A stretch of DNA of 64,000 nt, taken from the IMG/VR virus record IMGVR_UViG_2925908680_000001; one strand, 5' to 3'. Positions 17,464 to 61,334 of the stretch are shown here, piece by piece. How positions within the stretch are numbered: the first letter of the stretch is position 1; every line of letters starts with the position of its first letter. Both the position numbers and the translations under genes were made by a program. Under the pieces are notes generated by a model. That model searched no databases and was not told where the DNA came from. It worked only from the letters and a program-made list of their open reading frames with translations. The stretch comes from a virus. Its lineage: Duplodnaviria; Heunggongvirae; Uroviricota; Caudoviricetes.

Positions 17464-17469
17464 GTTAAA

Positions 17470-17478
17470 TTTCTAACA
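17470..17478 (-). promoter_or_regulatory. operator-like 9-mer TGTTAGAAA (minus orientation)
   Basis: Member of dispersed motif family (12 sites). Confidence 0.5.
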
Positions 17479-18668: not shown

Positions 18669-18677
18669 TGTTAGAAA
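18669..18677 (+). promoter_or_regulatory. operator-like TGTTAGAAA with inverted partner TTTCTAA at 18690-18696
   Basis: Dispersed motif family; upstream of icd/ant module 1. Confidence 0.55.
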
Positions 18678-18879
18678 ATTAATTTGCTGTTTCTAAATCG
18701 GAATGTATGATCTGCATCATCGACAGAAGTCATCCATTGCTGAAATTTTTAGTTGATCTTCCATGTTTTCAGGCTTATATTCATGCCGTCGTAGCAAATT
18801 CTGCGACCAGGTTTGACAGCCTGAATGTTAGTGCGGACAACCGCAGATTTCCGATATTGCGGTATTTTTGTGTCCGTAA

Positions 18880-29613: not shown

Positions 29614-29622
29614 TGTTAGAAA
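29614..29622 (+). promoter_or_regulatory. operator-like TGTTAGAAA
   Basis: Dispersed motif family; 30 bp upstream of 29652 ORF. Confidence 0.55.
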
Positions 29623-29651
29623 ACTAATTTAACAAGGTGACGGGAACAGCA

Positions 29652-30860
29652 ATGAGTCAACACACTGATACTTCTAATCTGGAAATTATCTCGACAGCAA
29701 TTGAAACGCTGCGCACACAAATCGCTCTTATACAGAAACGGAATCCGGGTGATGACCTGTCAAAGCGACTGCACGAGAGTGTCATTGCCACTACAGATAA
29801 CCTGGTGGCGGAAATCAACAAGCTGCTTGATGATGGGGCAGTTGATTACAATAAGCTGGTGGATCAGTTTGAGGAATACCAACAAGCCGTTAATGATGGC
29901 TTGATCCGTTTTTCACAAGTCACAGGCGTATCAGCGACAGTTGAAAGCCTGGGTGATGCAGTTAATCAATTTGCCGCGAATATGCGTAATGAGATCGGCA
30001 ATCTGGAAGCGCGTCTTGAACAGGCAAATACACTGCGTAAATCTGCCGAAGCCGATTTGAACCGTTACAAAAAAGACTATCCGCCCAGCCTGACAAAGCG
30101 GCTGGATGTTGCGGAGAAGGATAACCGCACGCTGAAAAGAGAGCGCCGGGAACTAAAAGAGCGTTTAACCAAGCTCAATCAGCAATGCATTGATTATCAA
30201 GGCGAAGGCGTCACACTGCGTAAAAAGTTGGCTACAGCGCAGAGCATTATCGAAACATTAAAGCGAGAGTGCTCACAGCTTGGTCACGATCTGAACCGTG
30301 CTTGTGGCATGGGACAAAGACCAGAGACATTTCCACTTATGTATGATGGAAGGGATGCCATTGCCTACATCCATGAGTATCCGCACGGCCTGGTTGCGGA
30401 AACTGGGCAGCGTGGCGAAGCACTGCTGACGGCTAATTACCATCAACAAATCAGAACCAATCGCCTGTTAACGATGGATGTGATCCCATCGGTATGGGGA
30501 ACGCCGCTTTACTATCGCCTGCCGGGCTTCGAAAAGGACTGGAATACCGACATAGACGAATGTCTCGCAGATAAAATTATGGCGTACCTGGAGACGGATT
30601 TTCCGCGCTTATATCGCCGGATTATGGACTCTAAGGATGCGCCAATCGATGAATTAAAAATGCGTCCGGAGACGCTGGAGGCAATCAAGCAGACGGAGTT
30701 TGATACTGTATTCAGTGTGGCCTGCATTCCAAGCTGTTTCCATGAAAGCATCCCGTTCATGCAAGGAGATCGTCGTCAGGAAATCCTTGACGCTTGCCGG
30801 GTATGGGCGAACGAATGGGATAAGAAGAATGGGGGTGTAGAAGATCTTTATGGGAAATAA
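29652..30860 (+). CDS. coiled-coil protein of unknown function, operator-bracketed
   Basis: ATG at 29652 (ORF track GTG at 29637); N-terminal coiled coil, C-terminal globular domain. Confidence 0.5.
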   Translation: MSQHTDTSNLEIISTAIETLRTQIALIQKRNPGDDLSKRLHESVIATTDNLVAEINKLLDDGAVDYNKLVDQFEEYQQAVNDGLIRFSQVTGVSATVESLGDAVNQFAANMRNEIGNLEARLEQANTLRKSAEADLNRYKKDYPPSLTKRLDVAEKDNRTLKRERRELKERLTKLNQQCIDYQGEGVTLRKKLATAQSIIETLKRECSQLGHDLNRACGMGQRPETFPLMYDGRDAIAYIHEYPHGLVAETGQRGEALLTANYHQQIRTNRLLTMDVIPSVWGTPLYYRLPGFEKDWNTDIDECLADKIMAYLETDFPRLYRRIMDSKDAPIDELKMRPETLEAIKQTEFDTVFSVACIPSCFHESIPFMQGDRRQEILDACRVWANEWDKKNGGVEDLYGK

Positions 30861-30862
30861 TG

Positions 30863-30871
30863 TGTTAGAAA
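30863..30871 (+). promoter_or_regulatory. operator-like TGTTAGAAA
   Basis: Dispersed motif family. Confidence 0.5.
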
Positions 30872-31018
30872 TCTAAAATCACAATCCGAATGTATTGATT
30901 GTGAAGATAACTTAACATAGAATTTTCCTTGCTGGTGGGCGGTACCCACGTTTCGCTTGCTGGGCTTGATAGTCACTTATTGGTTATTGTTCTCCCACCA
31001 GCATTTAACAAATTAAAG

Positions 31019-31027
31019 TGTTAGAAA
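31019..31027 (+). promoter_or_regulatory. operator-like TGTTAGAAA
   Basis: Dispersed motif family. Confidence 0.5.
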
Positions 31028-40863: not shown

Positions 40864-40869
40864 ATTAAA

Positions 40870-40878
40870 TTTCTAACA
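40870..40878 (-). promoter_or_regulatory. operator-like TGTTAGAAA (minus orientation) just after dre
   Basis: Dispersed motif family. Confidence 0.5.
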
Positions 40879-44896: not shown

Positions 44897-45286
44897 TTAA
44901 ATAACCGGACAATCATCAAACTCCCCAATTCGGGCATCATTGATGACATGAGTGATCACACCAAAAACAGCATTACTGCCCGTGCATCCATCGTCATCTA
45001 CTGGTAACGCCTCTTTCTTCCCGGTGCTTAAATCCTCCAGGTGCTGGCGCGGATACTTCCTGTATCTCTTTATGCGATATTCACCCTCCATAGCGCAGAC
45101 AAGTAGCGAACCATCAACCGGAGTAAGTGAGGAATCGACCACCAGCAAAGCACCCTGCAATATTCCCTCACGGTGATGGCTATCAGCTGCCCGCATGAAG
45201 TAGGTTGCTGATGGATGCCTGATTAGTTGCTGATCAAGAGAAATTCGGCTTTCAACATAATCCGCCGCAGGAGAAGGGAAGCCCAT
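44897..45286 (-). CDS. humD: UmuD-like protein HumD (S24 LexA-type peptidase domain)
   Basis: 129 aa; S24 peptidase fold motifs; LexA box in promoter. Confidence 0.85.
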   Translation of the reverse strand: MGFPSPAADYVESRISLDQQLIRHPSATYFMRAADSHHREGILQGALLVVDSSLTPVDGSLLVCAMEGEYRIKRYRKYPRQHLEDLSTGKKEALPVDDDGCTGSNAVFGVITHVINDARIGEFDDCPVI

Positions 45287-45305: not shown

Positions 45306-45325
45306 TACTGTTCATTTATACAGTA
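45306..45325. promoter_or_regulatory. LexA (SOS) box TACTGT-TCATTTAT-ACAGTA
   Basis: Perfect CTGT-N8-ACAG palindrome between divergent humD and 45461 gene. Confidence 0.85.
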
Positions 45326-45460: not shown

Positions 45461-46042
45461 ATGCCTAATCGCATTCCTCTCGATCCTGTATTGCCCAAGA
45501 ATTTTGACTGCACTCCTAACGAGAAACGCTCTAAAGCTCAGCTGGACGCCTGGTGGGACCATCCCTATGGGGTTACAGAACATGACGGGAAAATTGTTGT
45601 TTATTGTCTGAATGGTGGCGCGTGGGACCGTCCATCCGTGCTTGGTTTGGCAAATAACTATGATGAAGCCTGTGAACTTGCCGAAAGACAGCAGGCTAGA
45701 TGGGTGAATACACGGTCTGAACCGACATTCATGTTTTCAAAAGAACCGCCATTTATACTGGCGAGGATGCCGCAGCGACCGGATCATCAACAAGAAATTG
45801 TTGCTGAATTTTCCTCAAGGGATGAGATGAATCTCTTCTCATTAAAGCAGGAAGAAAGGGATCGCGTCGAAGTGTCTCCAACTCTCGACCACAACCAGAT
45901 GAACCTGGCCCAACTCGCCTGGTACAGCAAAGAATTAGAGATGTCTATTGCCCGACTTGAAAACGAAAAAGCCGCTATCCAAGCCCAGCATGAAGTAGTT
46001 CTGAACCGGATTAGAGAAATGCAAAACGATAATAGAGGCTAA
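45461..46042 (+). CDS. hypothetical protein (Lxr-like position, probably LexA-regulated)
   Basis: 193 aa; divergent from humD across LexA box. Confidence 0.4.
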   Translation: MPNRIPLDPVLPKNFDCTPNEKRSKAQLDAWWDHPYGVTEHDGKIVVYCLNGGAWDRPSVLGLANNYDEACELAERQQARWVNTRSEPTFMFSKEPPFILARMPQRPDHQQEIVAEFSSRDEMNLFSLKQEERDRVEVSPTLDHNQMNLAQLAWYSKELEMSIARLENEKAAIQAQHEVVLNRIREMQNDNRG

Positions 46043-46066
46043 ATCGAGGTAGAAAACACATTGTTT

Positions 46067-46086
46067 AAGGCCACTAATTGTGGCCT
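46067..46086. other. hairpin aaggccac-taatt-gtggcct between convergent genes
   Basis: 7-8 bp stem. Confidence 0.45.
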
Positions 46087-46102
46087 CAAAGGGGAGAGAT
46101 GC

Positions 46103-46654
46103 TTATTGGCTATGGCTAAAAATCAAATGAGACACTTCATGTGGTTGTAGCTCGTCAAGATCCGGGGCCACAAAACCTTTTCCGAAAAACTTCACAAGTA
46201 ATTCACCAGCCGAATCATTGTCACCTATTACACGAAAGTCATACGGCAGCATCGCAAGTTGACGGCGTAATCCTGCGGAGAAAGTCGAACCTAACAGCGC
46301 CCACGAATTGCCGCCCGCGTTGTGTACAGCTGCGCTCTTAAAAATAGACTCAGTTATCCATATTGGGCCATCTTTTAAAGGAAGATAGGTTCCCCAAAGT
46401 AACTGTCTGCCATGTGATCGCGTGAAATACCGGGCCATCTTCGGATTGCTATGCTGCTTAGGAGCACCTGGTCTATATGTCTGATACCCAGCCAACATCC
46501 CATCAAACCTGTATAGAGGGAATGTAACTACTCCTTCACTTTCATCGATCCACTGTCTATATGGGTGTATATCATGGCGGTAGTTACGAGTTAGCAAATG
46601 AGCTTCCAGCTTTCCAAATTTTGTCATATTCCGTTCTTCCTGCATACTGGGCAT
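46103..46654 (-). CDS. TOPRIM-domain protein (stand-alone)
   Basis: 183 aa; conserved Glu (WITESIF) and DxD (VIGDNDSAG) arrangement. Confidence 0.4.
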   Translation of the reverse strand: MPSMQEERNMTKFGKLEAHLLTRNYRHDIHPYRQWIDESEGVVTFPLYRFDGMLAGYQTYRPGAPKQHSNPKMARYFTRSHGRQLLWGTYLPLKDGPIWITESIFKSAAVHNAGGNSWALLGSTFSAGLRRQLAMLPYDFRVIGDNDSAGELLVKFFGKGFVAPDLDELQPHEVSHLIFSHSQ

Positions 46655-46929
46655 GTGTTCTCTGTGAAATATGGGAAACTATTATCCAGCTCATCTACCC
46701 ACTGTTTATGGTCGAAGCAGAAAAATATCTCCCACGGCATTCCATATTCTTCCATCCATAGGCGGATCTGCATTTCTATTGGAATCGGCGGTATTGCAGA
46801 CACCATATCAACAGGATAACAGTTCAGACGACGTTCCAGTTTTTCTACTCTCTTCTGGAGATGAAATATCCGATCCAGATGCACACGCCGCTCCCGTGCC
46901 ATTTTAAAATAAAGCTCGCCGGTCATCAT
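46624..46929 (-). CDS. small Cys-pair protein, paralog of 46929..47294
   Basis: 101 aa; shared W..F.C.DH..W.DELD.SFPYF...CP.CR motif. Confidence 0.45.
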   Translation of the reverse strand: MMTGELYFKMARERRVHLDRIFHLQKRVEKLERRLNCYPVDMVSAIPPIPIEMQIRLWMEEYGMPWEIFFCFDHKQWVDELDNSFPYFTENTCPVCRKNGI

Positions 46930-47294
46930 TAACTCCTACATTCAGGGCAAGAGTTCCCTTCCGCAAAATAGGGGAAACTGCTATCAAGCTCATCACACCA
47001 TCTGCGATGGTCGTAGCACCAAAACGCCTCCCACGGTGCACGGAAATACTTCATCCACCAGGACACTCGATCAGGTATATCTGCTGGTGGCAGCTCTTCT
47101 GGCAATAATTTGCCTGATAATTCCCTTTCCGCCCGCGCCAGCATTCCTTTTAGACTCGCATTCTCTTTTTCAAGAATATCTATGCGCGCCTGTAACTCAG
47201 CTTTCGTTGGCATGGTCCGCCTCATGCTTTTCAGCCACCAGCGGCAATAAAGCCCTGGCCATCTTATGAACCAACAGAGCATCGATAATGCCAA
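46929..47294 (-). CDS. small Cys-pair protein, paralog of 46624..46929
   Basis: 121 aa; same C-terminal motif. Confidence 0.45.
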   Translation of the reverse strand: MALSMLCWFIRWPGLYCRWWLKSMRRTMPTKAELQARIDILEKENASLKGMLARAERELSGKLLPEELPPADIPDRVSWWMKYFRAPWEAFWCYDHRRWCDELDSSFPYFAEGNSCPECRS

Positions 47295-47877
47295 GCGTAT
47301 GCCCCGGCTTAATGTTTAATGCCGCCTCAAGGTGACACCTTTCCAGGTCACTTTTCTCGGCTTGTTTATGATGATCTGGCGTAATAACGTCGCCCAAAAC
47401 ACGGCTAATTCTTTCTCGTAATTGCTGGGTGCCTGCACACTTGATCGCTGTATCGTGGAGACGGTTAACCAGTTCGCGATAAACATGCGGCTTAATGCGG
47501 ATACGTTCACCGGTGACGCCCTTTCCTGGCGCTGGCACCGAACTATCCGGAATATCCGGATAGTTGCCAGCCTCGTAAGCTACCCGCAGCCAGTGCATGA
47601 ATGTTTCAGTGGACACACAACCACAGTCCACATCGATTTTTCCGCGTTGCTGTTCCAGCCACTGCTCAAAATTCAATCTACACGTATTACTTTCATGTTG
47701 CTCTTTTTGTCTCAAGGCCAGCACCTGTTGGGCCAGTTCCAGAACGATACCGGGTGACGCTAACCTCTCAAATTCCAATAAATAGTTTGCGTCAGGATGA
47801 CAAGTAGCCTCGCCTGCAAAAAATACCAATTGCTGTAAGTATGCTGTCGTTAGAGTAGTCATTTCTTTTTGCGCCAT
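47197..47877 (-). CDS. hypothetical protein (C-terminal region related to C-terminus of 56369..56992)
   Basis: 226 aa; LVNRLHDTAIKCAGTQQLRERIS vs LVDALRDVAIECHGTDQLRARLS. Confidence 0.4.
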   Translation of the reverse strand: MAQKEMTTLTTAYLQQLVFFAGEATCHPDANYLLEFERLASPGIVLELAQQVLALRQKEQHESNTCRLNFEQWLEQQRGKIDVDCGCVSTETFMHWLRVAYEAGNYPDIPDSSVPAPGKGVTGERIRIKPHVYRELVNRLHDTAIKCAGTQQLRERISRVLGDVITPDHHKQAEKSDLERCHLEAALNIKPGHTLGIIDALLVHKMARALLPLVAEKHEADHANES

Positions 47878-48233
47878 TTCTTTTCACATTCCTTAGTCCA
47901 TTTTTCAATGTTCATTTTGGCAATATCAGTCATTCCATCACCTAAGAAATACTTTTTCCGGTACGTCTTGCACTTAAACCACACTACAACAGCCACCAGC
48001 CAGAAAATAAAAGGCCATACGGCAATACCAACTCCAGCCGCGATAAAGCCCAATATCCATAAATGAAGCTCTCCAACTTCTGTTTCCGGCAATATTCTTA
48101 AAGAATTAAACAGCAGGCTGAACGAATGGTCGTATGCATTGGCAGTATAAGACATGCAATCCATATAATTAAAGTCATAGCCTGCGGCTGCCGCCCATAA
48201 TGGGCGGTCAAGAAAATGTTTTAGTGTCATCAT
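47859..48233 (-). CDS. membrane protein
   Basis: 124 aa with central TM helices and Lys-rich tail. Confidence 0.4.
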   Translation of the reverse strand: MMTLKHFLDRPLWAAAAGYDFNYMDCMSYTANAYDHSFSLLFNSLRILPETEVGELHLWILGFIAAGVGIAVWPFIFWLVAVVVWFKCKTYRKKYFLGDGMTDIAKMNIEKWTKECEKKWRKKK

Positions 48234-48239
48234 ATTAAT

Positions 48240-48533
48240 TTAAGGTTCAGACCAGTTATCTTCAATAGCAATGCTTAATCTTTGTAGCCATTCTGCTAAT
48301 TTCAGCATTGCTTCTCTTTCGCTTAAACCACACGGAAAATCATCAAGCGATATTGTTGGCTTGAAGTTTCCCAAATTATCCATTTCAACGGTCAGATTTT
48401 GCTCCAGAACGGTATTTCTTACGCGGCTATTGTGCCGAAGCAAATATACTGAACGTGATTTATTGGTTTTGTGGTCGAACGTATATTCGGTAAGTATCAT
48501 CTGACTTCCGCCATGATTATTACCGCGCCACAT
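48240..48533 (-). CDS. hypothetical protein
   Basis: 97 aa ORF. Confidence 0.35.
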   Translation of the reverse strand: MWRGNNHGGSQMILTEYTFDHKTNKSRSVYLLRHNSRVRNTVLEQNLTVEMDNLGNFKPTISLDDFPCGLSEREAMLKLAEWLQRLSIAIEDNWSEP

Positions 48534-48556
48534 AATTACTCCGTGTTAATTGAAAT

Positions 48557-48919
48557 TTAGCTATTAATCTTCACTTTTATCGCGAACACCTTTACCGGTT
48601 TATCACCGAAGTGTGGATGTGTGATTGTTTTTATTTCATATCCGTTATACGGGACGTCTATTCTGCGACTGGAATCGTCGCGCTTCGGATATCCCTTTGT
48701 GATAATCAGGCGGTCATATTCCCGGAACATGATTCGCTTATTCCAGTAGTCATTACACAAGCGATACTCTTCCGTTTTCTCTCCAGACTTCATCTGGTCG
48801 AAATATTCACCGTTAACTGCCAGTTGAAGGTTAGCCACGGTTAACCTCCTGCGGTGGTTCCGGTAGCGGCATCCAGTGAGTTGCCTGCTCAATACCATTA
48901 CCCGGTTTAATCGTTGCAT
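48557..48919 (-). CDS. ASCH/PUA-like domain protein
   Basis: YFDQMKSGEKTEEYRL motif; start may be internal. Confidence 0.45.
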   Translation of the reverse strand: MQRLNRVMVLSRQLTGCRYRNHRRRLTVANLQLAVNGEYFDQMKSGEKTEEYRLCNDYWNKRIMFREYDRLIITKGYPKRDDSSRRIDVPYNGYEIKTITHPHFGDKPVKVFAIKVKINS

Positions 48920-50075
48920 CTCCGCGCCGAAAGGTGCTTCCGGTATAGCGTGCGGAGCATATTAGCGGTTCAACCAGAGAGCTATCGAAATTCACCGAAA
49001 TAAGCACGTTCTGGCCCTTTTCAGGCATTCGCTCACTACAGCTTATCCAACTATCCGAAATTACCGGAGAGTTTACGGCTAACGAGCGACCCAACTCAGC
49101 GCGGGCTTGCCAGGCTAACCAGGCAGCGTTTTTTGCGCCAACACCAGCTATGGGGAGGTTCTCGTCGTTATTCCAGGCATTGAAAGCTGCACGTTCATCA
49201 AGCCCAACAGGTACTACTGCCAACTGACTGGCATATTTGTTAATGGTAACGATAAGCTCTTGCTCAGCCTCATCCAGACAATCACCGATACCTCGCCTGT
49301 CACCGTCAAAATCATCGAAATCGGCACGAATCTTGGCAACCTTCAGGATTGCGGACAACACCTCACTAAGAATTACCGGATAGTTGGTTGACGTTTCCGC
49401 GATTTCCCGAAAATTATTGGTTGATGTTTCCGCGATTTCCCGAAAGTTTCCGGCATGAAGCATAGCCGCGCGGCAGGCGTTCCAGCCACCACGAAACCCA
49501 TTAGCCCATGCATCACTTTTCGGTAATTTCTCCATTAAATCATCAGCAATTTCCCCAGGTACTACCGGCACTGGCTTGGCGGTATAAAGCGGTGTTATAT
49601 CTGCCCGAAAATTACATGCTTTATGCAGCCGCACCCACCGTTCGACTTCTGCTTTGTCAAAATACATACCAGTGAACGTGTTATATTCACGGTCAATTTG
49701 CGTGAATGTTACCTTCCACGCCACCGGCTCTGCTTCCAGCGATGCCAGCGCAATTCGTGCCAGTTCTTCCGCTTCTTCTGCTGGCAGTACAACGTTGCTA
49801 CCCGGTCCGTATGTTTCGCGCCACTGCTTGATTGTCAGCAGTCGCTCTTTGGTTATAGTGGTCATGGGTTTTCCATCCGCCATCTCTTCATCGGTTTCCC
49901 ATAAAACTCGCGCCTGCCCCTCACAGACTTGAATGACTCCGCCACGACCGCAGGAGTTGCACTTAACGGCATCGTCATCCCACAAGGCGGTTTCATTTCC
50001 GCGAGCTGTTTTGACCGTGTGTGATTTATTCCCGCAGCGGCATTTGTTGAGCCAGTCAATAGTGAAAGTTTTCAT
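48831..50075 (-). CDS. phage protein with C-terminal DUF551-like domain and internal 11-aa tandem duplication
   Basis: 414 aa; ends HWMPLPEPP; NFREIAETSTN x2. Confidence 0.45.
   Translation of the reverse strand: MKTFTIDWLNKCRCGNKSHTVKTARGNETALWDDDAVKCNSCGRGGVIQVCEGQARVLWETDEEMADGKPMTTITKERLLTIKQWRETYGPGSNVVLPAEEAEELARIALASLEAEPVAWKVTFTQIDREYNTFTGMYFDKAEVERWVRLHKACNFRADITPLYTAKPVPVVPGEIADDLMEKLPKSDAWANGFRGGWNACRAAMLHAGNFREIAETSTNNFREIAETSTNYPVILSEVLSAILKVAKIRADFDDFDGDRRGIGDCLDEAEQELIVTINKYASQLAVVPVGLDERAAFNAWNNDENLPIAGVGAKNAAWLAWQARAELGRSLAVNSPVISDSWISCSERMPEKGQNVLISVNFDSSLVEPLICSARYTGSTFRRGDATIKPGNGIEQATHWMPLPEPPQEVNRG
49385..49450. repeat. 33-bp direct tandem duplication inside coding sequence
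   Basis: ttggttga(c/t)gtttccgcgatttcccgaaa x2 read directly. Confidence 0.85.
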
Positions 50076-50341
50076 GATGCCTCTCCTTTACCCGCTGCTT
50101 TCGCCTGCTCTTTAGCAAGTCGCTCCGCTTCTCTGAAATCCCAATCCACTCGATGTGCTATATCAATTGCAGAGCGCACGGTTCGCTCAATTAGCGTATC
50201 CAGATTGTCAATTGTCATTGCCATATCTGGATTGCGAGATAAAATCTCCGCCCTCTGAATCTGCCAGTTGTTGCAGGTTTCAAGTAATGAGTTAGCCATA
50301 TCACTCTCCTTTGATGCGAATGCCAGCGGTGCGGGAATCAT
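50072..50341 (-). CDS. hypothetical protein
   Basis: 89 aa ORF. Confidence 0.35.
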   Translation of the reverse strand: MIPAPLAFASKESDMANSLLETCNNWQIQRAEILSRNPDMAMTIDNLDTLIERTVRSAIDIAHRVDWDFREAERLAKEQAKAAGKGEAS

Positions 50342-51053
50342 TCCATCGCTTTACTTCTTCACGAATTACGTCAATGCATTCTTTCGAATCCATTAGGTAA
50401 TCTTCATCAAAAAGACGTTCCTGTTCGTTTTCTATCGCAACAATGATTGCTTCAACTAACTTTTGTGCCTGAGAATCACTTTCTAACTCTGCTATGCGCT
50501 TCTCTGCGGCTTCCAGCTTCTCGCGCATATCGTCAACGTACTCGACCAGAGATCCGCCAGCAGGAATTTCGCACTCCTCGACCAGTTGGAAGTAGATATC
50601 AGCTGCGGCCCGTGTGTTGCTATGCCTTGCGTCGCCCATCTCACCTTCACGAAGAGCATCGCGTTCGGCGGTAAGATTGGCTATTTTGCTGTCTTTGCCT
50701 TCCAGCTCAACGCGCAGCCTCCCAACCGTTAGCGCAATTTCCTCGTTCTCCTGGTCGCGGCGTTTGATGTATTGCTGTTTTCTTTCCAGCTCATCCAGCA
50801 GCGCCAAGACGGTAGCCGGATTGGCTGCGGCGATGAATTCAGCATTGGCCTGCTGTTCCATTTGGAAATCTTCATCGAAACCGCTTTCTGGATGCGCTCC
50901 TTCAATTCTGCAAATTGGAAGATATCCAACAACCTCACGATGAATTAGCGCATCATCACCATCAAATCGGCCATTTCCATATTCGAGCGACCACACACCA
51001 CACGTTGCTTTCTCTGCCTTTTCACGCAGTGCCTGATAGTCAATCTTGTTCAC
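50301..51053 (-). CDS. Ead/Ea22-like protein
   Basis: 250 aa; ANAEFIAAANPATVLALLDE motif and coiled coil. Confidence 0.55.
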   Translation of the reverse strand: MNKIDYQALREKAEKATCGVWSLEYGNGRFDGDDALIHREVVGYLPICRIEGAHPESGFDEDFQMEQQANAEFIAAANPATVLALLDELERKQQYIKRRDQENEEIALTVGRLRVELEGKDSKIANLTAERDALREGEMGDARHSNTRAAADIYFQLVEECEIPAGGSLVEYVDDMREKLEAAEKRIAELESDSQAQKLVEAIIVAIENEQERLFDEDYLMDSKECIDVIREEVKRWNDSRTAGIRIKGE

Positions 51054-51643
51054 TGGTTGCCTCCTTTGCGAAGCTGGGCGGCGAACTCGTTAAGTGATAT
51101 GTAGCAATCTCCAAATGTTAACGAACCGCTCGACCGCATATGCTCCATAGCCATCTCCACGCCCTGCGCCCGTACTTCAGCCAGGAAAGCGTCGGTAGCT
51201 GGCGTTTCGCTGTGGTGCAGGGCATCATTAATAATCATCGCAGCAACTCCGGCCTGCCCTGCATCCGTGACCGACACATGCTCAAGAGTTACGGCCATTG
51301 CGTGTTTCAGCCCAGCGTTCTCTGCCACCAGCGCAGCGAGATTAGTCTCAAGCTCTGAAATTCGGCACGTGGCATCAATATTTGTGTCCTCCAAGCACTT
51401 AATTTCACCAAGCAGCTCCAGTGCAACCTTTGGGTTGAACGCGGCAACATGACGAGCGTTGTTCTCTGCATTTTTCTGTCCATCAAAGCCGGTCCATTTG
51501 ATAACGTCTTCACATCGTTCATCACCGGGCGTGCGCACCGCATAAGTACCAGTATCCGTCGAAATAAATGCGACCCATTCGTCTGGTGTTGCCTTTTCTG
51601 CCGCCTCACGCAGTACCTGATAGTCAATTGTCATTCTCGCCAT
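51050..51643 (-). CDS. Ead/Ea22-like protein
   Basis: 197 aa; HVAAFNPKVALELL motif; C-terminus shared with 55095..55757. Confidence 0.55.
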   Translation of the reverse strand: MARMTIDYQVLREAAEKATPDEWVAFISTDTGTYAVRTPGDERCEDVIKWTGFDGQKNAENNARHVAAFNPKVALELLGEIKCLEDTNIDATCRISELETNLAALVAENAGLKHAMAVTLEHVSVTDAGQAGVAAMIINDALHHSETPATDAFLAEVRAQGVEMAMEHMRSSGSLTFGDCYISLNEFAAQLRKGGNQ

Positions 51644-52275
51644 CCTTCACAGTTGTAATCACTACAGCCTTCAAAATCATATGGGCTGTACTGCCAGGTG
51701 ATTTTTCCGCAATGCGGACAATTCCAGCGCACCTTCCCGCTTCGTGACTTCTTTCTTCTGTTTTGCTTTTTCAACCAGTCAGGCATGATCAAACCTGCGC
51801 CCTGAACCATTGTTCTGCGGTTAAAATTATTGATATTGAACGTCCGCCGCTTTGCTGCATCGGCAATGGAAAATGGCAACCAAACTATTCCTGGTTCGTT
51901 TTTGTTGGCGACGCTAAAGATGGTTGCTTTACTGAAGTCATCGGTTGGCAATCCACCGTGTTGAAGCCAGTAAACATCGTTGCCATTCCAGCAACCTTTT
52001 TTGTAGGCCACATACGCAGTGCAATCTGACTCAATCAGGCTTTCTGTAGGGATGTACTGGCAATCAACGTGCCACACTGCCATTGCATCCACGCTATCAG
52101 CGCAAACAGGCTGATCGATATCTCGACCACAATTCCAGGCTTTTTGGGCTTCTTCCAGCGTGTAAACATGAGCGCGATCGATATCAGAGCTGTAACCATT
52201 GCCGTTATGGCAATGGAATGAGGCGTTATTACCCACAGTTTCACGCAAGCACATCATGTAAAAGCGGTTATTCAC
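51631..52275 (-). CDS. hypothetical Cys-rich protein
   Basis: 214 aa, C-terminal CPHCG...C..YNCEGW. Confidence 0.35.
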   Translation of the reverse strand: MNNRFYMMCLRETVGNNASFHCHNGNGYSSDIDRAHVYTLEEAQKAWNCGRDIDQPVCADSVDAMAVWHVDCQYIPTESLIESDCTAYVAYKKGCWNGNDVYWLQHGGLPTDDFSKATIFSVANKNEPGIVWLPFSIADAAKRRTFNINNFNRRTMVQGAGLIMPDWLKKQNRRKKSRSGKVRWNCPHCGKITWQYSPYDFEGCSDYNCEGWRE

Positions 52276-52561
52276 TGGTTGCCTCCGCTTCCCACGTTTT
52301 CAGACTTTCACCACAGAACGGGCAAAATGAAACTCGAATCGGCGATTTAGAAAATTCACCAGACCGCAGCATGATCAGGTCCTGTGAATGAATTAATTCA
52401 TGGTTATAGATTTTGTATTTCAGCAGACCTTTCCGCGTCGTGTATTCAGCATCCTGCTCCAGGGATTGTGCCAACGCCGCGCACGGTTCTATTTTTTTGT
52501 CATTAATCAAACAAGTGGAGATTCTGCACTTTGCAGCTCCGTCACCATTACCTTGACTCAT
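52268..52561 (-). CDS. small zinc-ribbon-like protein
   Basis: 97 aa; C..C ... CPFCG. Confidence 0.35.
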   Translation of the reverse strand: MSQGNGDGAAKCRISTCLINDKKIEPCAALAQSLEQDAEYTTRKGLLKYKIYNHELIHSQDLIMLRSGEFSKSPIRVSFCPFCGESLKTWEAEATSE

Positions 52562-52574
52562 TGCATTGTTCCCA

Positions 52575-53570
52575 TCAGTTATTGAACGTGATCACTCCGC
52601 GCTCGATGGCGAAGTCGAAAAGCTGGTTGGCGGCTACGTAAAGGCGTATGCCATGTGCTTTTTCCCATGCCCGGACATCGTTTTCTGCGCTTCTGGCGCA
52701 TTCATCGCAAAGAGGAACGGCCCAGCGATCGTGTTCGTTTAACGAGCGGGCGCGGTACATGAACGGGTGGTTAACTTTGCCACCGCATCCGATGCACGGA
52801 CGAGAAACCACAAACCGGAGATAAGCCGGGCTTTTACCGAGGACCGCTTTTGGTCGGCGCATATACAGCAGGCCAGAATCCTCATCTACAGACAGGTTGA
52901 CGATCTGCTCTGCGGTTATGTCCACCAGCTCGCGCGTACTGCGCTCCCAGGTGATATCTGATTCTTTCAGCGTACCGGTAGGGATGTCAGTTTTTGGCTG
53001 ACAAAATGCAATGCGACCAGCTTCATCAGGCAGTTCGTCTTTAAGATTCCGGCGAATGGCCCAAAAGGTGAGTTCAACCATGCTCAGATCGCGATCTGGC
53101 GGAAGTTTTAACTCGCTGGCAGCCCAGTTCATAATCCAGTTGGCGCGATTCAGTGACAGTTGGTCTTCCAGCTTGCCGTATCCCTTCATCATGTATTCCG
53201 CATCATGCTTCCAGCACAGGCGAACGGCAGAACCGTTATAGAAGTGAGTGGTTAGCTGGTGGCTACAATCGCGCTTATCATGCGCCTGGCAATCGTGAAT
53301 GTTGGTGCTAACCCAGTGAACGATAGAATCCTCGCCACCTAACGCATTAAATACGCGCTCACTTTGAAAAAAGGGTGTCAGTGACTGGTTGGCAACCAGG
53401 GAATAATTCAGGTCCACGACGCCATCAGGGGTGTTTTCAGCCTGTTCGCGCGGCAATGGGGAGATAAGAAAACGGCGACCGGCGCCGATGTAATTGCTGG
53501 TGGGCTTATCTACAGGAAAGACAGCCACACCAGTTTCATTTACGACATATGGGGTGATTATTGCACTCAT
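52575..53570 (-). CDS. hypothetical protein (DUF968-like, C-terminal Cys cluster)
   Basis: 331 aa; CIGCGG...CDEC pattern. Confidence 0.4.
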   Translation of the reverse strand: MSAIITPYVVNETGVAVFPVDKPTSNYIGAGRRFLISPLPREQAENTPDGVVDLNYSLVANQSLTPFFQSERVFNALGGEDSIVHWVSTNIHDCQAHDKRDCSHQLTTHFYNGSAVRLCWKHDAEYMMKGYGKLEDQLSLNRANWIMNWAASELKLPPDRDLSMVELTFWAIRRNLKDELPDEAGRIAFCQPKTDIPTGTLKESDITWERSTRELVDITAEQIVNLSVDEDSGLLYMRRPKAVLGKSPAYLRFVVSRPCIGCGGKVNHPFMYRARSLNEHDRWAVPLCDECARSAENDVRAWEKAHGIRLYVAANQLFDFAIERGVITFNN

Positions 53571-53612
53571 AATGCATACCGACTCTGTTTTGTTCCGAGC
53601 GGTAAAATAATA

Positions 53613-53621
53613 TGTTAGAAA
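53613..53621 (+). promoter_or_regulatory. operator-like TGTTAGAAA with inverted partner TCTAACA at 53636-53642
   Basis: Dispersed motif family; inside leftward operon gap. Confidence 0.55.
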
Positions 53622-53674
53622 ATTAAAATCAACAATCTAACACGATTTTGAGCGCGTAAACGATGTAACCCGGC

Positions 53675-54358
53675 TTACGGTTGCCCTCCCTTCACCTGCA
53701 TTAGCGTCAGGTTTCCGCAAAATACAGCACCAGTATCGATATAATGCTGGTTCCAGAATGCTTTTGGGCTTTTAGCCGGGGTGTGTCCGAAGATAAAGCG
53801 ATCTGCACCTGTAATTTCTTCACCGATGCCATCTATCGAATCACTAACACGGTCGCGCGACCAGATGACATTGAAAAGCGGCACAGCCTTACCGAACTGA
53901 TACTCTCTATCCGGATAGTCAGCATGAGCAATGACAATAGTCTCCTGCCCGGTGTTCAGCTCAATGATATGAGGCAATTGCCTTACCAGCTCCACCAGCG
54001 CCCTGGCTAAAACTTCCTTATCACTATCCAGCATAAAGAACCACTGGCCGCCATTCATTAGCCAGTTATTCACGTTTCCAGCTGGGCTTAACGCATCGAT
54101 CATCAACCGCTCATGGTTACCCATGACAGCCCGGAACCAGGGCATCTGCAATAACTCCAGGCATTCGACATTTTCAGTACCGCGATCGATAAGGTCGCCG
54201 ACTGATATCAGTAAATCCTGCGCCGGGTCAAAATCCACACGATGGAGTTCATTCATAAGCAGGGTGTAGCAACCGTGCAAATCACCAACAACCCATATGT
54301 TTCTGTATCCTGAACCATCAATACGGCTATATAACGCCTGGTCGTTAACGGTGATCAT
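53675..54358 (-). CDS. Ser/Thr protein phosphatase (lambda PPase-like metallophosphatase)
   Basis: GDLHG, GDLIDRG, GNHE motifs. Confidence 0.85.
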
Positions 54359-54582
54359 TCTGCAACATCCTCCAAATCAGCAACCGCGTCCATCACATCA
54401 GAACCTCGAATAACTTCAAAAGCGCGGCAGGCCATTTGAAATACCTGTTGTTCTTGCGGGTGCGGAGACTCCCAATATTTGAAGCCTGGGCGATGCGTGT
54501 ACCCCATCATGGAATAAAAATCGCCAGCAAGTTCAATCGCGGCATCAACAAGTTCGCGATTAGTCATTCGCTTTGCTGCCAT
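54355..54582 (-). CDS. hypothetical protein
   Basis: 75 aa, ATGA overlap. Confidence 0.35.
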
Positions 54583-54853
54583 TTGCTTTCTCCTGTCGGA
54601 ACATCACGATCATCAGGTCACCTTTTGTCGCTATCCTGGCTGTTGTGCCAGGCTCAATGCGGCTAAGTTCAAATGCGTCATAGAACGCCTCTAACGCTTT
54701 CTGGCGTATCTCCTGTTTGCGGCGCTTTCCCCACTGCTTTAGAAAAACAGAGGCCGCCCACTTCCCCGCACTGAACATGATGTAAAACCAACCGAGCAGG
54801 GCCAAACCTGTGTTGAGGGCCGTATCGATCGTTATCGTGGTGTCGATATTCAC
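54560..54853 (-). CDS. small membrane protein
   Basis: 97 aa with TM helix. Confidence 0.35.
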   Translation of the reverse strand: MNIDTTITIDTALNTGLALLGWFYIMFSAGKWAASVFLKQWGKRRKQEIRQKALEAFYDAFELSRIEPGTTARIATKGDLMIVMFRQEKANGSKAND

Positions 54854-55098
54854 TGTGGTGGCTCCTGCTTTTCTGCCTTCAATACCATGCGCGAACCATC
54901 ATCCAGCTCCCAATTAATTTCACCGCCTTCTTCCATGACCAGATGCCAGACGAGTTGAGCGGCCTCGTTGGTTACATCACGACCGCGATCATTGCCAACA
55001 CGACGTTTTGTTCCATCCCCTAAGTCACGCATTTTTGCCAACACGATGGTTTTTGATAGCGGTGAAAAACCAAGCTGTAGTCGTGCTGAATTGCTCAC
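54850..55098 (-). CDS. hypothetical protein
   Basis: 82 aa ORF. Confidence 0.35.
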   Translation of the reverse strand: MSNSARLQLGFSPLSKTIVLAKMRDLGDGTKRRVGNDRGRDVTNEAAQLVWHLVMEEGGEINWELDDGSRMVLKAEKQEPPQ

Positions 55099-55757
55099 TG
55101 TTTCCCTCCCTTGCGAAGCTCTGCGGCAAAGTCAGTGGCATGTTCACCGAGTAGCTTCCAGTTATCGCGTATATCAGATGCAAATGACTGTTCAGATTTT
55201 GAGTTACATTTCTGTGCAAACATCTCCAATCCCTGCGCCCGGACTTCAGCCAGGAAAGCGTCGGTGGTTGGAGTCCCTTCAACCTTCAGCCCTATAGGGG
55301 CCAGGTAATACTTCAGCCCCGCATTCTCCGCCGCCAGCGACGCGCAATTACCCTCCAGCTCTGCAATGCGCTGTTTTGCAGCATCAAGTTCAATCGATAA
55401 TTTTTCCAACTGCTCTTTATGCTTCTTGTATTCCTGATATGCGTGCCAGGACTGACCTTTGCGCACACTATCAGTAATATCAGTAATCTGTTCTGGTGTT
55501 AGCGTGGTTAGTGGCTGTGCTGGGAAAATCAGCACTTTCCCGGAATCCCAATCAAAACCAGCGTGAATTGACTGAACCTCAACTGAGGGTGTTGAACCAA
55601 TGCTGCCAGGCGAATGAACAACGATCGTTACATCCATATCGCGACGATGGCTGTGGTTGTTGGACAAAATACGATTCACCAACTCAGAAAATTTGGAAAA
55701 TTTCATGCTGATTCCCTTTGCTCTTCCTGGATAATATTGTTGCAATCTTTCACGCAC
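55095..55757 (-). CDS. Ea22-like coiled-coil protein
   Basis: C-terminal [14 protein letters not shown] shared with 51050..51643. Confidence 0.5.
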
Positions 55758-56065
55758 TCGTTGCAGATGAAAACGTTGTCCCCGGCAATTAACTTTTTAA
55801 CGGTGTGCTGGGATTTGTTGCAGAAGCTGCAATAAAGCGTTGGACTGGCTGATACGGATTGTGCGCCAGATGTCAGCCGCGCGATGTCGTTCTTGCGACG
55901 CAATATCACACGGCTGCACTCGACCAGCATCTCCGGGGATATCTTCTCCTCCGTAGCGAGCGTTTCTAATCGTTCGAGTATGTGGAAGGCTTTTTCCTGG
56001 GTAATCCTGGGTAATTCAGCGTTACGCTCTGCCAGTTGTGCGGGCGTTAAACCTTCAGACTTCAT
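55703..56065 (-). CDS. protein with ClpX-type C4 zinc-binding domain
   Basis: [32 protein letters not shown] closely resembles ClpX N-terminal ZBD. Confidence 0.55.
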
Positions 56066-56372
56066 ACACTCTCCTTTCGAAATAAACGTACTGATTAATC
56101 ATGCCCAGGGGCATTTCGAGTTTTTCCGCGATCTCACGGCGGGGAACACCACACTGATGAAGCTGCCGTGCCAGTTCTATATCGCTCTGCCGGTATTTGG
56201 CTGACGGATGAAAGTCTCCTTTCAGAATCATGCTGATCCCCAGCTCCCGCGCTTTAGTCCTGACGGCATCACCGGTACGACCGATCAGCTTCCCAATACT
56301 CTCTACCGTCATAGTTCCGGCGCACTGGCGGAGTATCATGATTTCTGCCCTTCCCCATCCCCGCCAGCTCAC
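56055..56372 (-). CDS. small HTH-like protein
   Basis: 105 aa; two helix-turn-helix-like segments. Confidence 0.35.
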
Positions 56373-56992
56373 GCCGACATCCTCTGAGACATAAACTCCA
56401 CAAAACGAACTGCATCTTCAGAAACAACGCCGCATGACTTCAGATAATTCATTGCGTCATCAGGTAGCGGATTAGTTGGTTCGGCATTTGCCAGGGATTG
56501 AGATAAACGCGTGATTAATTTGACCATTCTCCGCTGCCGGAGGTTGTATCCTTCAGCTAAAGACAGGTAACTGGAAAGGGTATTGCTTAAGCGGGCGCGA
56601 AGCTGATCCGTGCCGTGACATTCAATAGCAACATCACGTAACGCATCGACCAGTTCACGGTAAAGATGCGCTGCCATTCTGCAATCTGTGTCAGATGGTG
56701 CTTCATAAATTACCGTCAACCCCAGTTTTTCAGCCAGAGCGTGTTCTGCACGTGCTCCTGCGGACACATCCCATCCCTTAAGCAGATAGATCGCATCAGC
56801 AGAACGCACCATTGCCAGGCAAATATCCATGTATTCACTCTGACAAAGGCCACCAGGTAACACAGCTGGATTCAGAACGATATGCCCTTCAGCCATCAGC
56901 TCGCTCGCTTTCGCATTAAACGCCGCACGGTTGTAATCTGGATAACCAGTCATCGGCCCCGCGATGTAAATTTTCAAAACACGTTTCACCAT
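56369..56992 (-). CDS. DUF4406 / nucleoside 2-deoxyribosyltransferase-like domain protein
   Basis: IYIAGPMTG...W..S.GA..E N-terminal pattern; start at M10 coupled (TGATG) to upstream small ORF. Confidence 0.45.
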   Translation of the reverse strand: MVKRVLKIYIAGPMTGYPDYNRAAFNAKASELMAEGHIVLNPAVLPGGLCQSEYMDICLAMVRSADAIYLLKGWDVSAGARAEHALAEKLGLTVIYEAPSDTDCRMAAHLYRELVDALRDVAIECHGTDQLRARLSNTLSSYLSLAEGYNLRQRRMVKLITRLSQSLANAEPTNPLPDDAMNYLKSCGVVSEDAVRFVEFMSQRMSA

Positions 56993-57148
56993 CAAAATTT
57001 CCCCAAAATCGTGACGCAAAACATAAGCACTGCGAAAAGCTCAATACCAAGCTCAAGTAGCGCCAACGCCCCGAAAAACAACACATAGAACAGGCCAATC
57101 TCATTCACAGATGGCTGGTGGATCGCACTTAAAGCTATAAGCATCATG
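56992..57148 (-). CDS. 51-aa hydrophobic peptide, first gene of leftward operon
   Basis: GGAGGA SD before ATGATG; MMLIALSAIHQPSVNEIGLFYVLFFGALALLELGIELFAVLMFCVTILGKF; below ORF-track size cutoff. Confidence 0.4.
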
Positions 57149-57186
57149 TCCTCCAAACAGTTATCAGGAATGATATTAATGTTTTG

Positions 57187-57195
57187 TGTTAGAAA
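57187..57195 (+). promoter_or_regulatory. operator-like TGTTAGAAA in divergent promoter region
   Basis: Between leftward operon start and ref-like gene. Confidence 0.55.
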
Positions 57196-57264
57196 ATCAA
57201 TTTTGAATATCTAATCATTTTGATCAATCATAGAAAAATCGCTGAAAAGTAAGAGGCAGCCATC

Positions 57265-57843
57265 ATGCAGAAACAGAGCTATTGGGAGAAACAGAGACAA
57301 AAAGCCATGCAAAAATTGGCTGACCCAGCCTGGCGAGAGGAACAAAGGGCAAAGCGCCTTCAACAAGCTCAACGCCAGCAGCAGCGAGCGAGAGAAAAAG
57401 CCGCATCGCCTGAATATCGGCAAAAGAAAATTGAAAAAGCAAAGCAATATGAACAGCGGAGAAAAGATAAAGCTGTATCCGCTCCGTCCAAAAAAACACG
57501 CACGTCACGCGGCCTGAAAGGCAGATCACTCACAGCCGATGAACGCCGGATACAGACCGCTATCGGTGCTCTCCCCTGCATTGCCTGCCATATTCACGGG
57601 CAACATAGCCCAGTGGTATCCCTGCACCATATCTTCGGGAGAACGGCAGAGAACGCACATAGATATGTCCTCCCTTTGTGTAAATGGCACCACCAGTACG
57701 CAGCGCCAGCCGAGGTCCGAGAACAATATCCCTGGCTGGTCCCTGTTCATGCTGACGGAAAAATAGGCGGAAAAGCAGATTTCATGCGGCACAATGCCGA
57801 TGAAATGACGTTGTATCAGATGGCGATTGAATTGATAAATTAG
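57265..57843 (+). CDS. Ref-like HNH endonuclease (recombination enhancement function family)
   Basis: 192 aa; Lys/Arg/Gln-rich N-terminal 90 aa then CIACHIHGQH...HHIFG...LCKWHH HNH core. Confidence 0.6.
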   Translation: MQKQSYWEKQRQKAMQKLADPAWREEQRAKRLQQAQRQQQRAREKAASPEYRQKKIEKAKQYEQRRKDKAVSAPSKKTRTSRGLKGRSLTADERRIQTAIGALPCIACHIHGQHSPVVSLHHIFGRTAENAHRYVLPLCKWHHQYAAPAEVREQYPWLVPVHADGKIGGKADFMRHNADEMTLYQMAIELIN

Positions 57844-57845
57844 TT

Positions 57846-57854
57846 TTCTAACAT
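57846..57854 (-). promoter_or_regulatory. operator-like TGTTAGAAA (minus orientation)
   Basis: Dispersed motif family. Confidence 0.5.
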
Positions 57855-61215: not shown

Positions 61216-61334
61216 GTAAACAAAATGAAGTTTTATGTTACAAAAACAATCAACTACATCAACATGATTTAGGCCAAATTTCGGTCAAAAAATAAAATCC
61301 ACAAAAAGTGGTTGACACTATTTTGGAAATCACA

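Follow-up and report, generated by a model that had tools for sequence, protein, structure and literature searches.

The window analysed here, a 64,000-nucleotide stretch from a member of the Caudoviricetes (IMG/VR record IMGVR_UViG_2925908680_000001), contains a block of 23 consecutive minus-strand genes running from position 57147 down to 46103 (g01 to g23, numbered from right to left; Table 1). This 11-kb block is likely to be a train of accessory genes that a D6-type phage-plasmid ('P1 subgroup 2' in the terminology used for D6-like phage-plasmids; PMC10879196) expresses early and under repressor control. By comparison with known records it is a gene combination not seen before, in a kind of locus that is known; a locus of this sort is to be expected in this phage group. 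Its sequence suggests that it is probably organised as two tandem repressible units, g01–g09 and g10–g23, rather than as one operon.

The source element is a D6-like phage-plasmid according to sequence comparison, since both its best matches and the annotated layout are common to D6 and the plasmid pKOr024_2. D6 is the top phage match to the 11-kb region (43% coverage, 91% identity), and pKOr024_2 is the top plasmid match, covering 71% of the block at 94% identity; approximately 940 non-mobilisable plasmids of E. coli and Salmonella, of the D6/P1 type and about 90 kb in size, also match the region. Gene order agrees with the annotated loci of D6 (NC_050154, orf88–orf105) and pKOr024_2, which comprise a rightward gene for a Ref-like nuclease, a leftward train of small genes headed by a 50-aa open reading frame (ORF) and a DUF4406 gene, and then (hot)/lxr, humD, phd-doc and pdcA. 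The block shares with the early units of the P1 group (D6 subgroup) its backbone and its synteny beside lxr-humD-phd-doc, as well as a ppp phosphatase gene, the product of which is 86% identical to P1 Ppp. In D6, the corresponding train occupies the same position between ref and (hot)/humD-phd-doc, carries the same two operator sites and begins with the same three genes (hydrophobic peptide, DUF4406 and helix-turn-helix (HTH) protein), followed by the DUF4752 gene, the 75-aa gene, ppp, the DUF968 gene and orf99. However, D6 lacks g06, g12, g15–g19 and the Toprim gene g23, and has other cassettes there, including DUF4014 and phiV10-like genes.

The gene count derives from the ORF listing together with inspection of start codons and Shine-Dalgarno (SD) sequences. 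The preliminary description of this DNA had recognised the leftward train correctly, but had counted about 24 genes and placed the end at 57148, one nucleotide too far. Its statement that most genes overlap by 1–4 nt agrees with our count: 17 of the 22 junctions overlap, 12 of them by 1–4 nt (ATGA, GTGA or TGATG type) and five by 8–23 nt. The remaining junctions consist of four gaps of 1–23 nt and a single gap of 104 nt (53571–53674), which separates the phosphatase and DUF968 genes. GC skew is negative throughout 46–57 kb, and the sole find of a tandem-repeat scan of the block was a trivial 10-nt repeat. The train opens, as had been proposed, with a 51-aa membrane peptide preceded by a perfect SD. 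The product is strongly hydrophobic, with Kyte-Doolittle values reaching 2.3 across residues 17–49, and GGAGG lies 2 nt ahead of the ATG at 57147 and 5 nt ahead of the ATG at 57144. This peptide is 98–100% identical among D6-group loci; the HTH-like protein g03, which also gives a weak Sigma70_r4_2 match, is 93–100% identical among them.

The block had further been described as operator-controlled. Operator-like sites are indeed present, as predicted from sequence and comparison, and they are of a D6 type and not the P1 operator. Scanning with the P1 C1 operator consensus ATTGCTCTAATAAATTT at up to three mismatches found nothing in the window or in the D6-group loci, whereas in a positive control the same scan recovered the annotated operators of P1 and SJ46. 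We dropped the P1 consensus and replaced it with a motif obtained by comparing the k-mers of the g01–ref intergenic region against those in the remainder of the window. This D6-type motif, ATTAATTTTCTAACA, has 13 matches at up to three mismatches against 2.7 expected, a number that none of 100 shuffles reached. With a position weight matrix (PWM) built on nine sites, the asymmetric operator consensus AATTARTTTTCTAACATA occurs at ten sites of at least 26 bits in the window, and shuffled sequences yield just 1–5 matches at 10 bits or more. Two of the ten strong sites, O1 and O2, fall within the block (Table 1). The positions of O1, O2 and a site after ref are the same in D6, pKOr024_2, the FWSEC0003 plasmid and pGMI14-002_2, and the motif was not found in P1, SJ46 or the lambdoid loci examined. 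At most motif sites the operator fills a promoter spacer and abuts a TAnnnT hexamer. Accordingly placed hexamers form the candidate promoters P-left1, with its -35 element and spacer inside O1, and P-left2, with O2 in its spacer.

The preliminary description had treated the block as one operon, and on this point the evidence argues otherwise. Since O2, a strong site with promoter-like hexamers of its own, lies in the sole large gap, between ppp and the DUF968 gene, two units g01–g09 and g10–g23 are the likelier arrangement. In the alternative, a single 11-kb operon would be transcribed from the upstream promoter/operator alone, with O2 acting as a roadblock, a relic or a control site for something else. 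This arrangement would suit the co-directionality of all 23 genes, and the 104-nt gap contains no terminator-like hairpin, such that read-through is likely anyway. We nonetheless consider a single operon unlikely, given that O2 is among the best motif matches (30.9 bits), that it is flanked by TTGTTG-17-TATTAT, that its position is kept in four D6-group elements, and that P1 likewise has operator-controlled promoters after ppp/pmgQ. Back-to-back with O2 lies a degenerate inverted copy, ATCAACAATCTAACA (53628–53642, plus strand), and the two form a 30-bp near-palindrome that may represent a bivalent operator as in P1, or chance. With four mismatches and a PWM score below 10 bits, the copy was set aside as a partner of O2 and is a weak possibility.

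Beyond the block, motif sites lie upstream of the Lpa-like (35114–35506), PmgS-like and RepL/O-like genes, between the C1-like and Cre-like genes, and after ref. A group-specific asymmetric operator-like site over a candidate sigma-70-type promoter is common to the block, the lpa- and c1-like genes and other early genes. The sites inside and outside the block would together mark a putative regulon of C1 that differs from the one in P1, where lpa, c1 and pmgR-pmgS are C1-operator-controlled. The strong sites outside the block are at 17464–17478, 18669–18683, 29614–29628, 30863–30877, 35021–35035, 39454–39468, 40864–40878 and 57839–57853, with weaker ones at 61236–61250, 39542–39556 and 31019–31033. 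The candidate immunity repressor is a C1-like protein, and its low similarity to P1 C1 fits the different operator sequence. Searches with 9-mers from the P1 -22 boxes (Lpa-type late promoters) proved too degenerate, giving many chance matches.

Several points weigh against an early, repressor-controlled accessory train. The C1 candidate is marginally similar to P1 C1 and its NCBIfam score is far below the curated cut-off, so the pairing of repressor and motif is one that we infer. Both promoters are weak consensus matches, P-left1 agreeing at 8 of 12 positions and falling under the promoter-scan threshold, and the scan called neither of them; the hairpin beyond g23 has a weak T-tract. C1 repression and early expression are predictions from sequence, and the roles of all block proteins are likewise predicted. 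PADLOC defence models gave no match among the 10 block proteins tested.

The content of the block had been judged lambdoid rather than P1-like, which is accurate for about 3 kb (48557–51643, g13–g17) but not for the rest, which circulates within P1-group elements. In a megablast of five segments against 50,697 phage records, g13–g17 matched 547 records, mostly of Stx-converting, lambdoid or P22-like phages, at 90–98% DNA identity over parts of 48557–51643. The other four segments matched 18–37 records (21 for g01–g05, 37 for g06–g09, 25 for g10–g12 and 18 for g18–g23), mainly from the P1 group (D6, P1, P7, SJ46 and RCS47), near-identical lambdoid DNA being rare or absent there, and g18–g23 reached 95–98% identity solely with the P1-group phages RCS47, P1 variants, SJ46 and P7. 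SJ46, P7 and the P22-like phage 611R6 encode g12 proteins of 97–98% identity, and 611R6 carries the g13–g17 cassette in its PL operon, with xis on one side and recT on the other. The D6 annotation likens many of its genes to N15, ES18, phiV10, mEp and 933W proteins, and hence the gene families are those of temperate enterobacterial phages generally. With the exo-xis (ea) region of lambdoid and P22-like phages, the block shares Ead/Ea22, DUF551, DUF4752, ASCH-like and small uncharacterised genes in a tightly packed, early and dispensable arrangement, and its Ppp matches the lambda phosphatase NinI. In contrast to that region, the block is flanked by ref, lxr and humD, syntenic records carry no annotated int, xis, exo or N, and the operator is of a P1-family type, with no PL/cI control.

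The description of the block as a mosaic accessory module was apt, as in no phage, plasmid or E. coli genome record does a single location account for more than 71% of it. In a gene-by-locus matrix of eight related loci, identities range from absent to 100%, with g01–g03 and g07–g11 forming a D6-group core and g04–g06 and g12–g23 forming exchangeable cassettes. Of 5,426 complete E. coli genomes, 3,768 contain pieces of the block, and most of these pieces lie within chromosomal prophages. Since these pieces are widespread and no record holds at least 80% of the block, we regard it as a new combination in a known recombinogenic module. Published gene-flow analyses of P1-like phage-plasmids agree with such mosaicism (PMC10879196), and Ea22 has been described as an early, pro-lysogenic, modular and mosaic protein (PMC10834534).

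We propose that, in the plasmid-prophage state, the C1-like repressor would bind the operators over the two sigma-70-type promoters. During infection or induction both units would fire leftward, and read-through from the first into the second is likely, since no terminator lies between them. The 23 genes would be translated largely by coupling, via ATGA/GTGA overlaps, until transcription stops at the hairpin facing lxr. The predicted products are non-structural accessory proteins (membrane peptide, nucleoside 2-deoxyribosyltransferase (NDT)-like, HTH, ClpX zinc-binding domain (ZBD), Ea22, phosphatase, PdcB-like HNH, DUF551 and mini-Toprim). By analogy with the lambda exo-xis and nin genes and with the early units of P1, the block most plausibly acts early, tuning host physiology and the lysis/lysogeny decision, and counter-defence roles, which the preliminary description expected to be enriched here, are possible. 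Cassettes would be exchanged at gene boundaries with P1-group elements, and the Ea22/DUF551 part with lambdoid prophages of the same hosts.

A bolder version of this model would make the block a counter-defence or host-takeover island with new effectors among its conserved 5' core and its variable cassettes (the NDT-like enzyme, the ClpX-ZBD mimic and the mini-Toprim protein), with the D6 operator defining its own C1 regulon; we hold this to be conceivable but doubtful, and the literature offered nothing specific on these families in phage-plasmids or on an anti-defence role for them. If it were true, the NDT-like enzyme could destroy nucleotide-derived signals or nucleotide pools, and the ClpX-ZBD mimic g04 could redirect or block host ClpXP by competing for ZBD-dependent substrates or adaptors. 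Substrates of the ClpXP protease include Phd, the antitoxin of P1, and lambda O. Alternatively, the block could be a cargo or 'moron' island expressed in lysogeny, with defence or fitness genes for example, and not an early lytic unit. The variable regions of P1-group elements do bear cargo such as resistance genes (PMC9603915), and Ea22 proteins favour lysogeny (PMC10834534). However, the block has two operators of the type that precedes lpa-, c1- and pmgS-like genes, the homologous P22-like/lambdoid cassette is in the PL early operon, and neither PADLOC matches in the 10 proteins tested nor insertion sequences or integrons were found, which together make a lysogenic cargo island improbable.

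At the level of individual proteins, most of the domains named in the preliminary description could be confirmed. Pfam supports DUF4406, the ClpX ZBD, the lambda-type phosphatase and DUF551, with structure matches to 1OVX and 1G5B. Three Ea22-like proteins had been listed: g13 and g14 are recognised by Pfam, whereas g05 has no Pfam Ead_Ea22 match and belongs with them through a C-terminus common with g13 and 81% identity to a protein that PGAP names 'ead/Ea22-like'. The paired Cys-motif paralogs, g21 and g22, are 52% identical over 54 aa and fall in the same PHROG family. The assignment of g17 as an ASCH protein is tentative, with PGAP names on 89–91% identical proteins and a Pfam ASCH match at E=0.14. 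Our searches added DUF7446, DUF4752, the DUF968/PdcB-like HNH protein and the HTH protein to the earlier list. NCBIfam gave no match for the uncharacterised proteins of the block. Sequence searches of the PDB with the C-terminal parts of the Ea22-like proteins and with the Toprim, ASCH-like and DUF4406 proteins returned nothing significant, so fold searches were required.

For g02, the AlphaFold2 (AF2) model of the N-domain has a predicted local distance difference test (pLDDT) score above 90, and its best Foldseek matches in the PDB are NDTs (E=3e-4, probability 1.0), CMP N-glycosidases and DNPH1/MilB. The family has the invariant motifs AGPxxG and S77-x-G79-xxx-E83, in which E83 would be equivalent to the NDT catalytic nucleophile. 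The model points to an NDT/DNPH1-like domain with predicted N-glycosidase or transferase activity. The C-terminal part of g02 contains a helical module of about 40 aa (aa 105–144, 56561–56680) that recurs in g20 (aa 127–166, 47380–47499) with 50% identity; its pattern, YRELV..L.D.AI.C.GT.QLR.R.S, is also present in several PHROG families and resembles a portable domain. In g04, a 73-aa N-terminal region precedes the ClpX-like segment, a close match to the ZBD of E. coli ClpX (structure 1OVX, E=1.3e-15).

The stand-alone Toprim protein g23, proposed earlier, is supported by PHROG primase families, invariant acidic motifs and an AF2 fold match, although Pfam and NCBIfam do not recover the domain. 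An alignment of 11 sequences shows an invariant TE...DxDxAG, and the AF2 model (pLDDT 89.8) has its best Foldseek PDB matches in the catalytic cores of T7 gp4 primase and DnaG (E ~1e-5, TMq 0.58–0.60). What g23 has in common with the DnaG/T7 gp4 core is its fold together with the acidic residues of the Toprim domain (E, DxD). Unlike DnaG, g23 has neither an N-terminal CHC2 zinc-binding domain nor a C-terminal helicase-binding domain, its 174-aa model corresponding to the core alone. The family comprises 1,235 clusters at 50% identity, mostly of 165–190 aa (about 175 aa, stand-alone). A distant homologue, 36% identical, was found in a Logan contig of SRR12487039 (1494–7234) next to DUF2828, AAA_33 kinase, PMM-type hydrolase and T7-kinase-like genes, a setting that resembles the early region of a virulent phage.

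It could be imagined that g21/g22 and g23 together make up a split DnaG-type primase for replication of the element, with g23 providing the catalytic-core fold and acidic motifs. The g22 gene overlaps g23 by ATGA and its product has a CxxH-x18-CxxC motif, which we take to be the DnaG zinc-ribbon spacing. However, zf-CHC2 does not appear in Pfam searches even with the cut-off relaxed to E<=10, no g22–g23 fusion occurs among the homologues (those of g22 are all stand-alone, at about 100 aa), the rare longer Toprim relatives have unrelated N-termini, two distant Toprim homologues lack a g22-like gene beside them, and the Toprim gene is missing from D6 itself. Fusions, a conserved gene neighbourhood and a zf-CHC2 signal all being absent, we regard a split primase as unsupported and very improbable.

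In P1, the corresponding region consists of Oppp followed by pmgN-pmgO-pmgP-ppp-pmgQ, OpmgRa/b followed by pmgR-pmgS-pap, and OpmgT followed by pmgT-pmgU-pmgV...hot, and then lxr, humD and the LexA box. Both elements have tandem, operator-controlled, co-directional units of small genes that include ppp and end beside lxr/humD. The first gene of the P1 ppp unit is also 51 codons long, and the position of O2 corresponds to that of OpmgRa/b, after ppp-pmgQ. The differences are that the operator is ATTGCTCTAATAAATTT in P1 and AATTARTTTTCTAACATA here, that the upstream neighbours are tail genes in P1 and ref/immI here, and that pmgS lies inside the P1 block while the PmgS-like gene is elsewhere in the D6-type element. 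P1 homologues within the block are limited to ppp (86%), g20 in its PmgU-like half (85%) and g10, a distant relative (38%) of PdcB, which P1 encodes elsewhere. Equivalence of g01 to PmgN, considered on the grounds of equal length and position, was rejected as there is no similarity; the label PmgS for the Toprim gene, seen in BLAST feature labels, was also rejected, with no tblastn match to P1 pmgS and the PmgS-like gene at 29637–30860. At this position P1 carries uncharacterised genes that, according to CRISPR interference and knock-outs, are non-essential except pmgR (PMC10695390, PMC9024508), and pmgT-humD is a hyper-variable region of P1-like phage-plasmids (PMC9603915). Orthology with characterised P1 housekeeping genes, the finding that would have spoken against an accessory module, was not observed, with few P1 homologues present and P1 counterparts that are mostly non-essential. 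A set of morphogenetic or housekeeping genes, as the 'pmg' names in some annotations suggest (g20 is PmgU-like, and related records label neighbours PmgS, PmgQ and PmgP), deserves hardly any credence, since these names are merely putative, the P1 region is dispensable apart from pmgR, no structural PHROG category was matched and the PmgS-like gene lies elsewhere in the element.

Table 1 Coordinates of the block genes, control sites and neighbouring features in the window
Feature	Position	Strand	Evidence and remarks
g01, 51-aa hydrophobic peptide (50 aa from ATG 57144)	56992..57147	-	SD GGAGG; phrog_8890 E=2.5e-35
g02, DUF4406/NDT-like N-domain and helical C-terminal module	56369..56992	-	Pfam E=7.6e-34
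g03, 105-aa HTH-like protein (PGAP: DNA-binding protein)	56055..56372	-	phrog_323 'transcriptional regulator, D5-like' E=6.7e-28
g04, 120 aa, C-terminal 46 aa a ClpX-type zinc-binding domain	55703..56065	-	zf-C4_ClpX E=1.2e-17
g05, Ea22-like coiled-coil, 203 aa from ATG 55706	55095..55706	-	phrog_6026/368
g06, DUF7446	54850..55098	-	Pfam E=5.6e-18
g07, DUF4752	54560..54853	-	Pfam E=1.7e-40
g08, 75 aa	54355..54582	-	phrog_4132; 90-97% identical among D6-group loci
g09, Ppp, lambda-type Ser/Thr protein phosphatase	53675..54358	-	Metallophos E=9e-15; PDB 1G5B E=3e-96
g10, DUF968/PdcB-like HNH	52575..53570	-	Pfam E=1.8e-44; phrog_96 'HNH endonuclease'; 38% to P1 PdcB
g11, 97 aa, P7 Upf87.4-like	52268..52561	-	phrog_4030
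g12, 214 aa, C-terminal Cys cluster, P7 Upf87.6-like	51631..52275	-	phrog_2457
g13, Ead/Ea22-like	51050..51634	-	Pfam E=2.5e-24
g14, Ead/Ea22-like	50301..51053	-	Pfam E=1e-29
g15, 75 aa	50072..50299	-	SD AAAGGAGAG; phrog_10585 E=2.3e-42, to residues 15-79 of the long ORF
g16, 414-aa multi-module: N-terminal Cys-rich, variable middle, C-terminal DUF551	48831..50075	-	Pfam DUF551 E=1.1e-21; PHROG modules
g17, 93 aa, PGAP name ASCH in near-identical homologues	48557..48838	-	phrog_625 E=6.6e-49
g18, 97 aa	48240..48533	-	phrog_1258
g19, 124 aa, strong transmembrane segment VGIAVWPFIFWLVAVVVWF	47859..48233	-	Kyte-Doolittle 2.38; phrog_2638; 98% identical in SJ46
g20, 226 aa, C-terminal half PmgU-like	47197..47877	-	phrog_21459; 85% to P1 pmgU frame over 57% of g20
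g21, 94-aa coiled-coil, CxxH-x19-CxxC, g22 paralogue	46929..47213	-	phrog_3797
g22, 101-aa coiled-coil, CxxH-x18-CxxC	46624..46929	-	phrog_3797
g23, 174-aa stand-alone DnaG-like RNA-polymerase/Toprim domain	46103..46627	-	PHROG 'DNA primase' families
Operator-like site O1 ATTGATTTTCTAACA	57187..57201	-	Divergent ref/g01 intergenic region, upstream of g01; PWM 27.5 bits
Operator-like site O2 TTTAATTTTCTAACA	53613..53627	-	104-nt gap after ppp; PWM 30.9 bits
Candidate sigma-70 promoter P-left1	57173..57200	-	-35 TTGATT 57200-57195, 16-nt spacer, -10 TAATAT 57178-57173
Candidate promoter P-left2	53607..53635	-	-35 TTGTTG 53635-53630, 17-nt spacer holding O2, -10 TATTAT 53612-53607
Terminator-like hairpin	46064..46090	-	Between convergent g23 and lxr; Delta-G -16.5 kcal/mol, z = -4.8
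Candidate C1-like immunity repressor, 345 aa	38403..39440	-	~21% identical to P1 C1; tblastn E=1e-6; NCBIfam phage_rep_C1 E=9e-6
PmgS-like gene	29637..30860	+	phrog_1660; ~16 kb from the block; own operator 23 nt upstream
Flank ref, RecA-dependent nuclease	57265..57843	+	Pfam RecA_dep_nuc E=9.6e-35; divergent from g01, O1 in the common intergenic region
Flank lxr homologue	45461..46042	+	96% identical to P1 Lxr; convergent with g23
Flank humD	44897..45286	-	98% identical to P1 HumD; divergent from lxr
LexA box CTGTTCATTTATACAG, CTGT-N8-ACAG	45308..45323		Between divergent humD and lxr, as in P1

Phage-plasmids of the P1/D6 type, which disseminate resistance genes, occur commonly in E. coli and Salmonella, and the early accessory block is their recombination interface with lambdoid prophages. 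The map of genes, operators and cassettes provides a candidate list for toxicity and anti-defence screens, headed by the ClpX-ZBD mimic, the NDT-like enzyme and the mini-Toprim protein, and offers an operator motif of the D6 immunity group that is open to testing. As a minor observation, the variable middle of g16 contains a 33-nt tandem duplication (49383–49448, minus strand; 30/33 identical), in which NFREIAETSTN is encoded twice.

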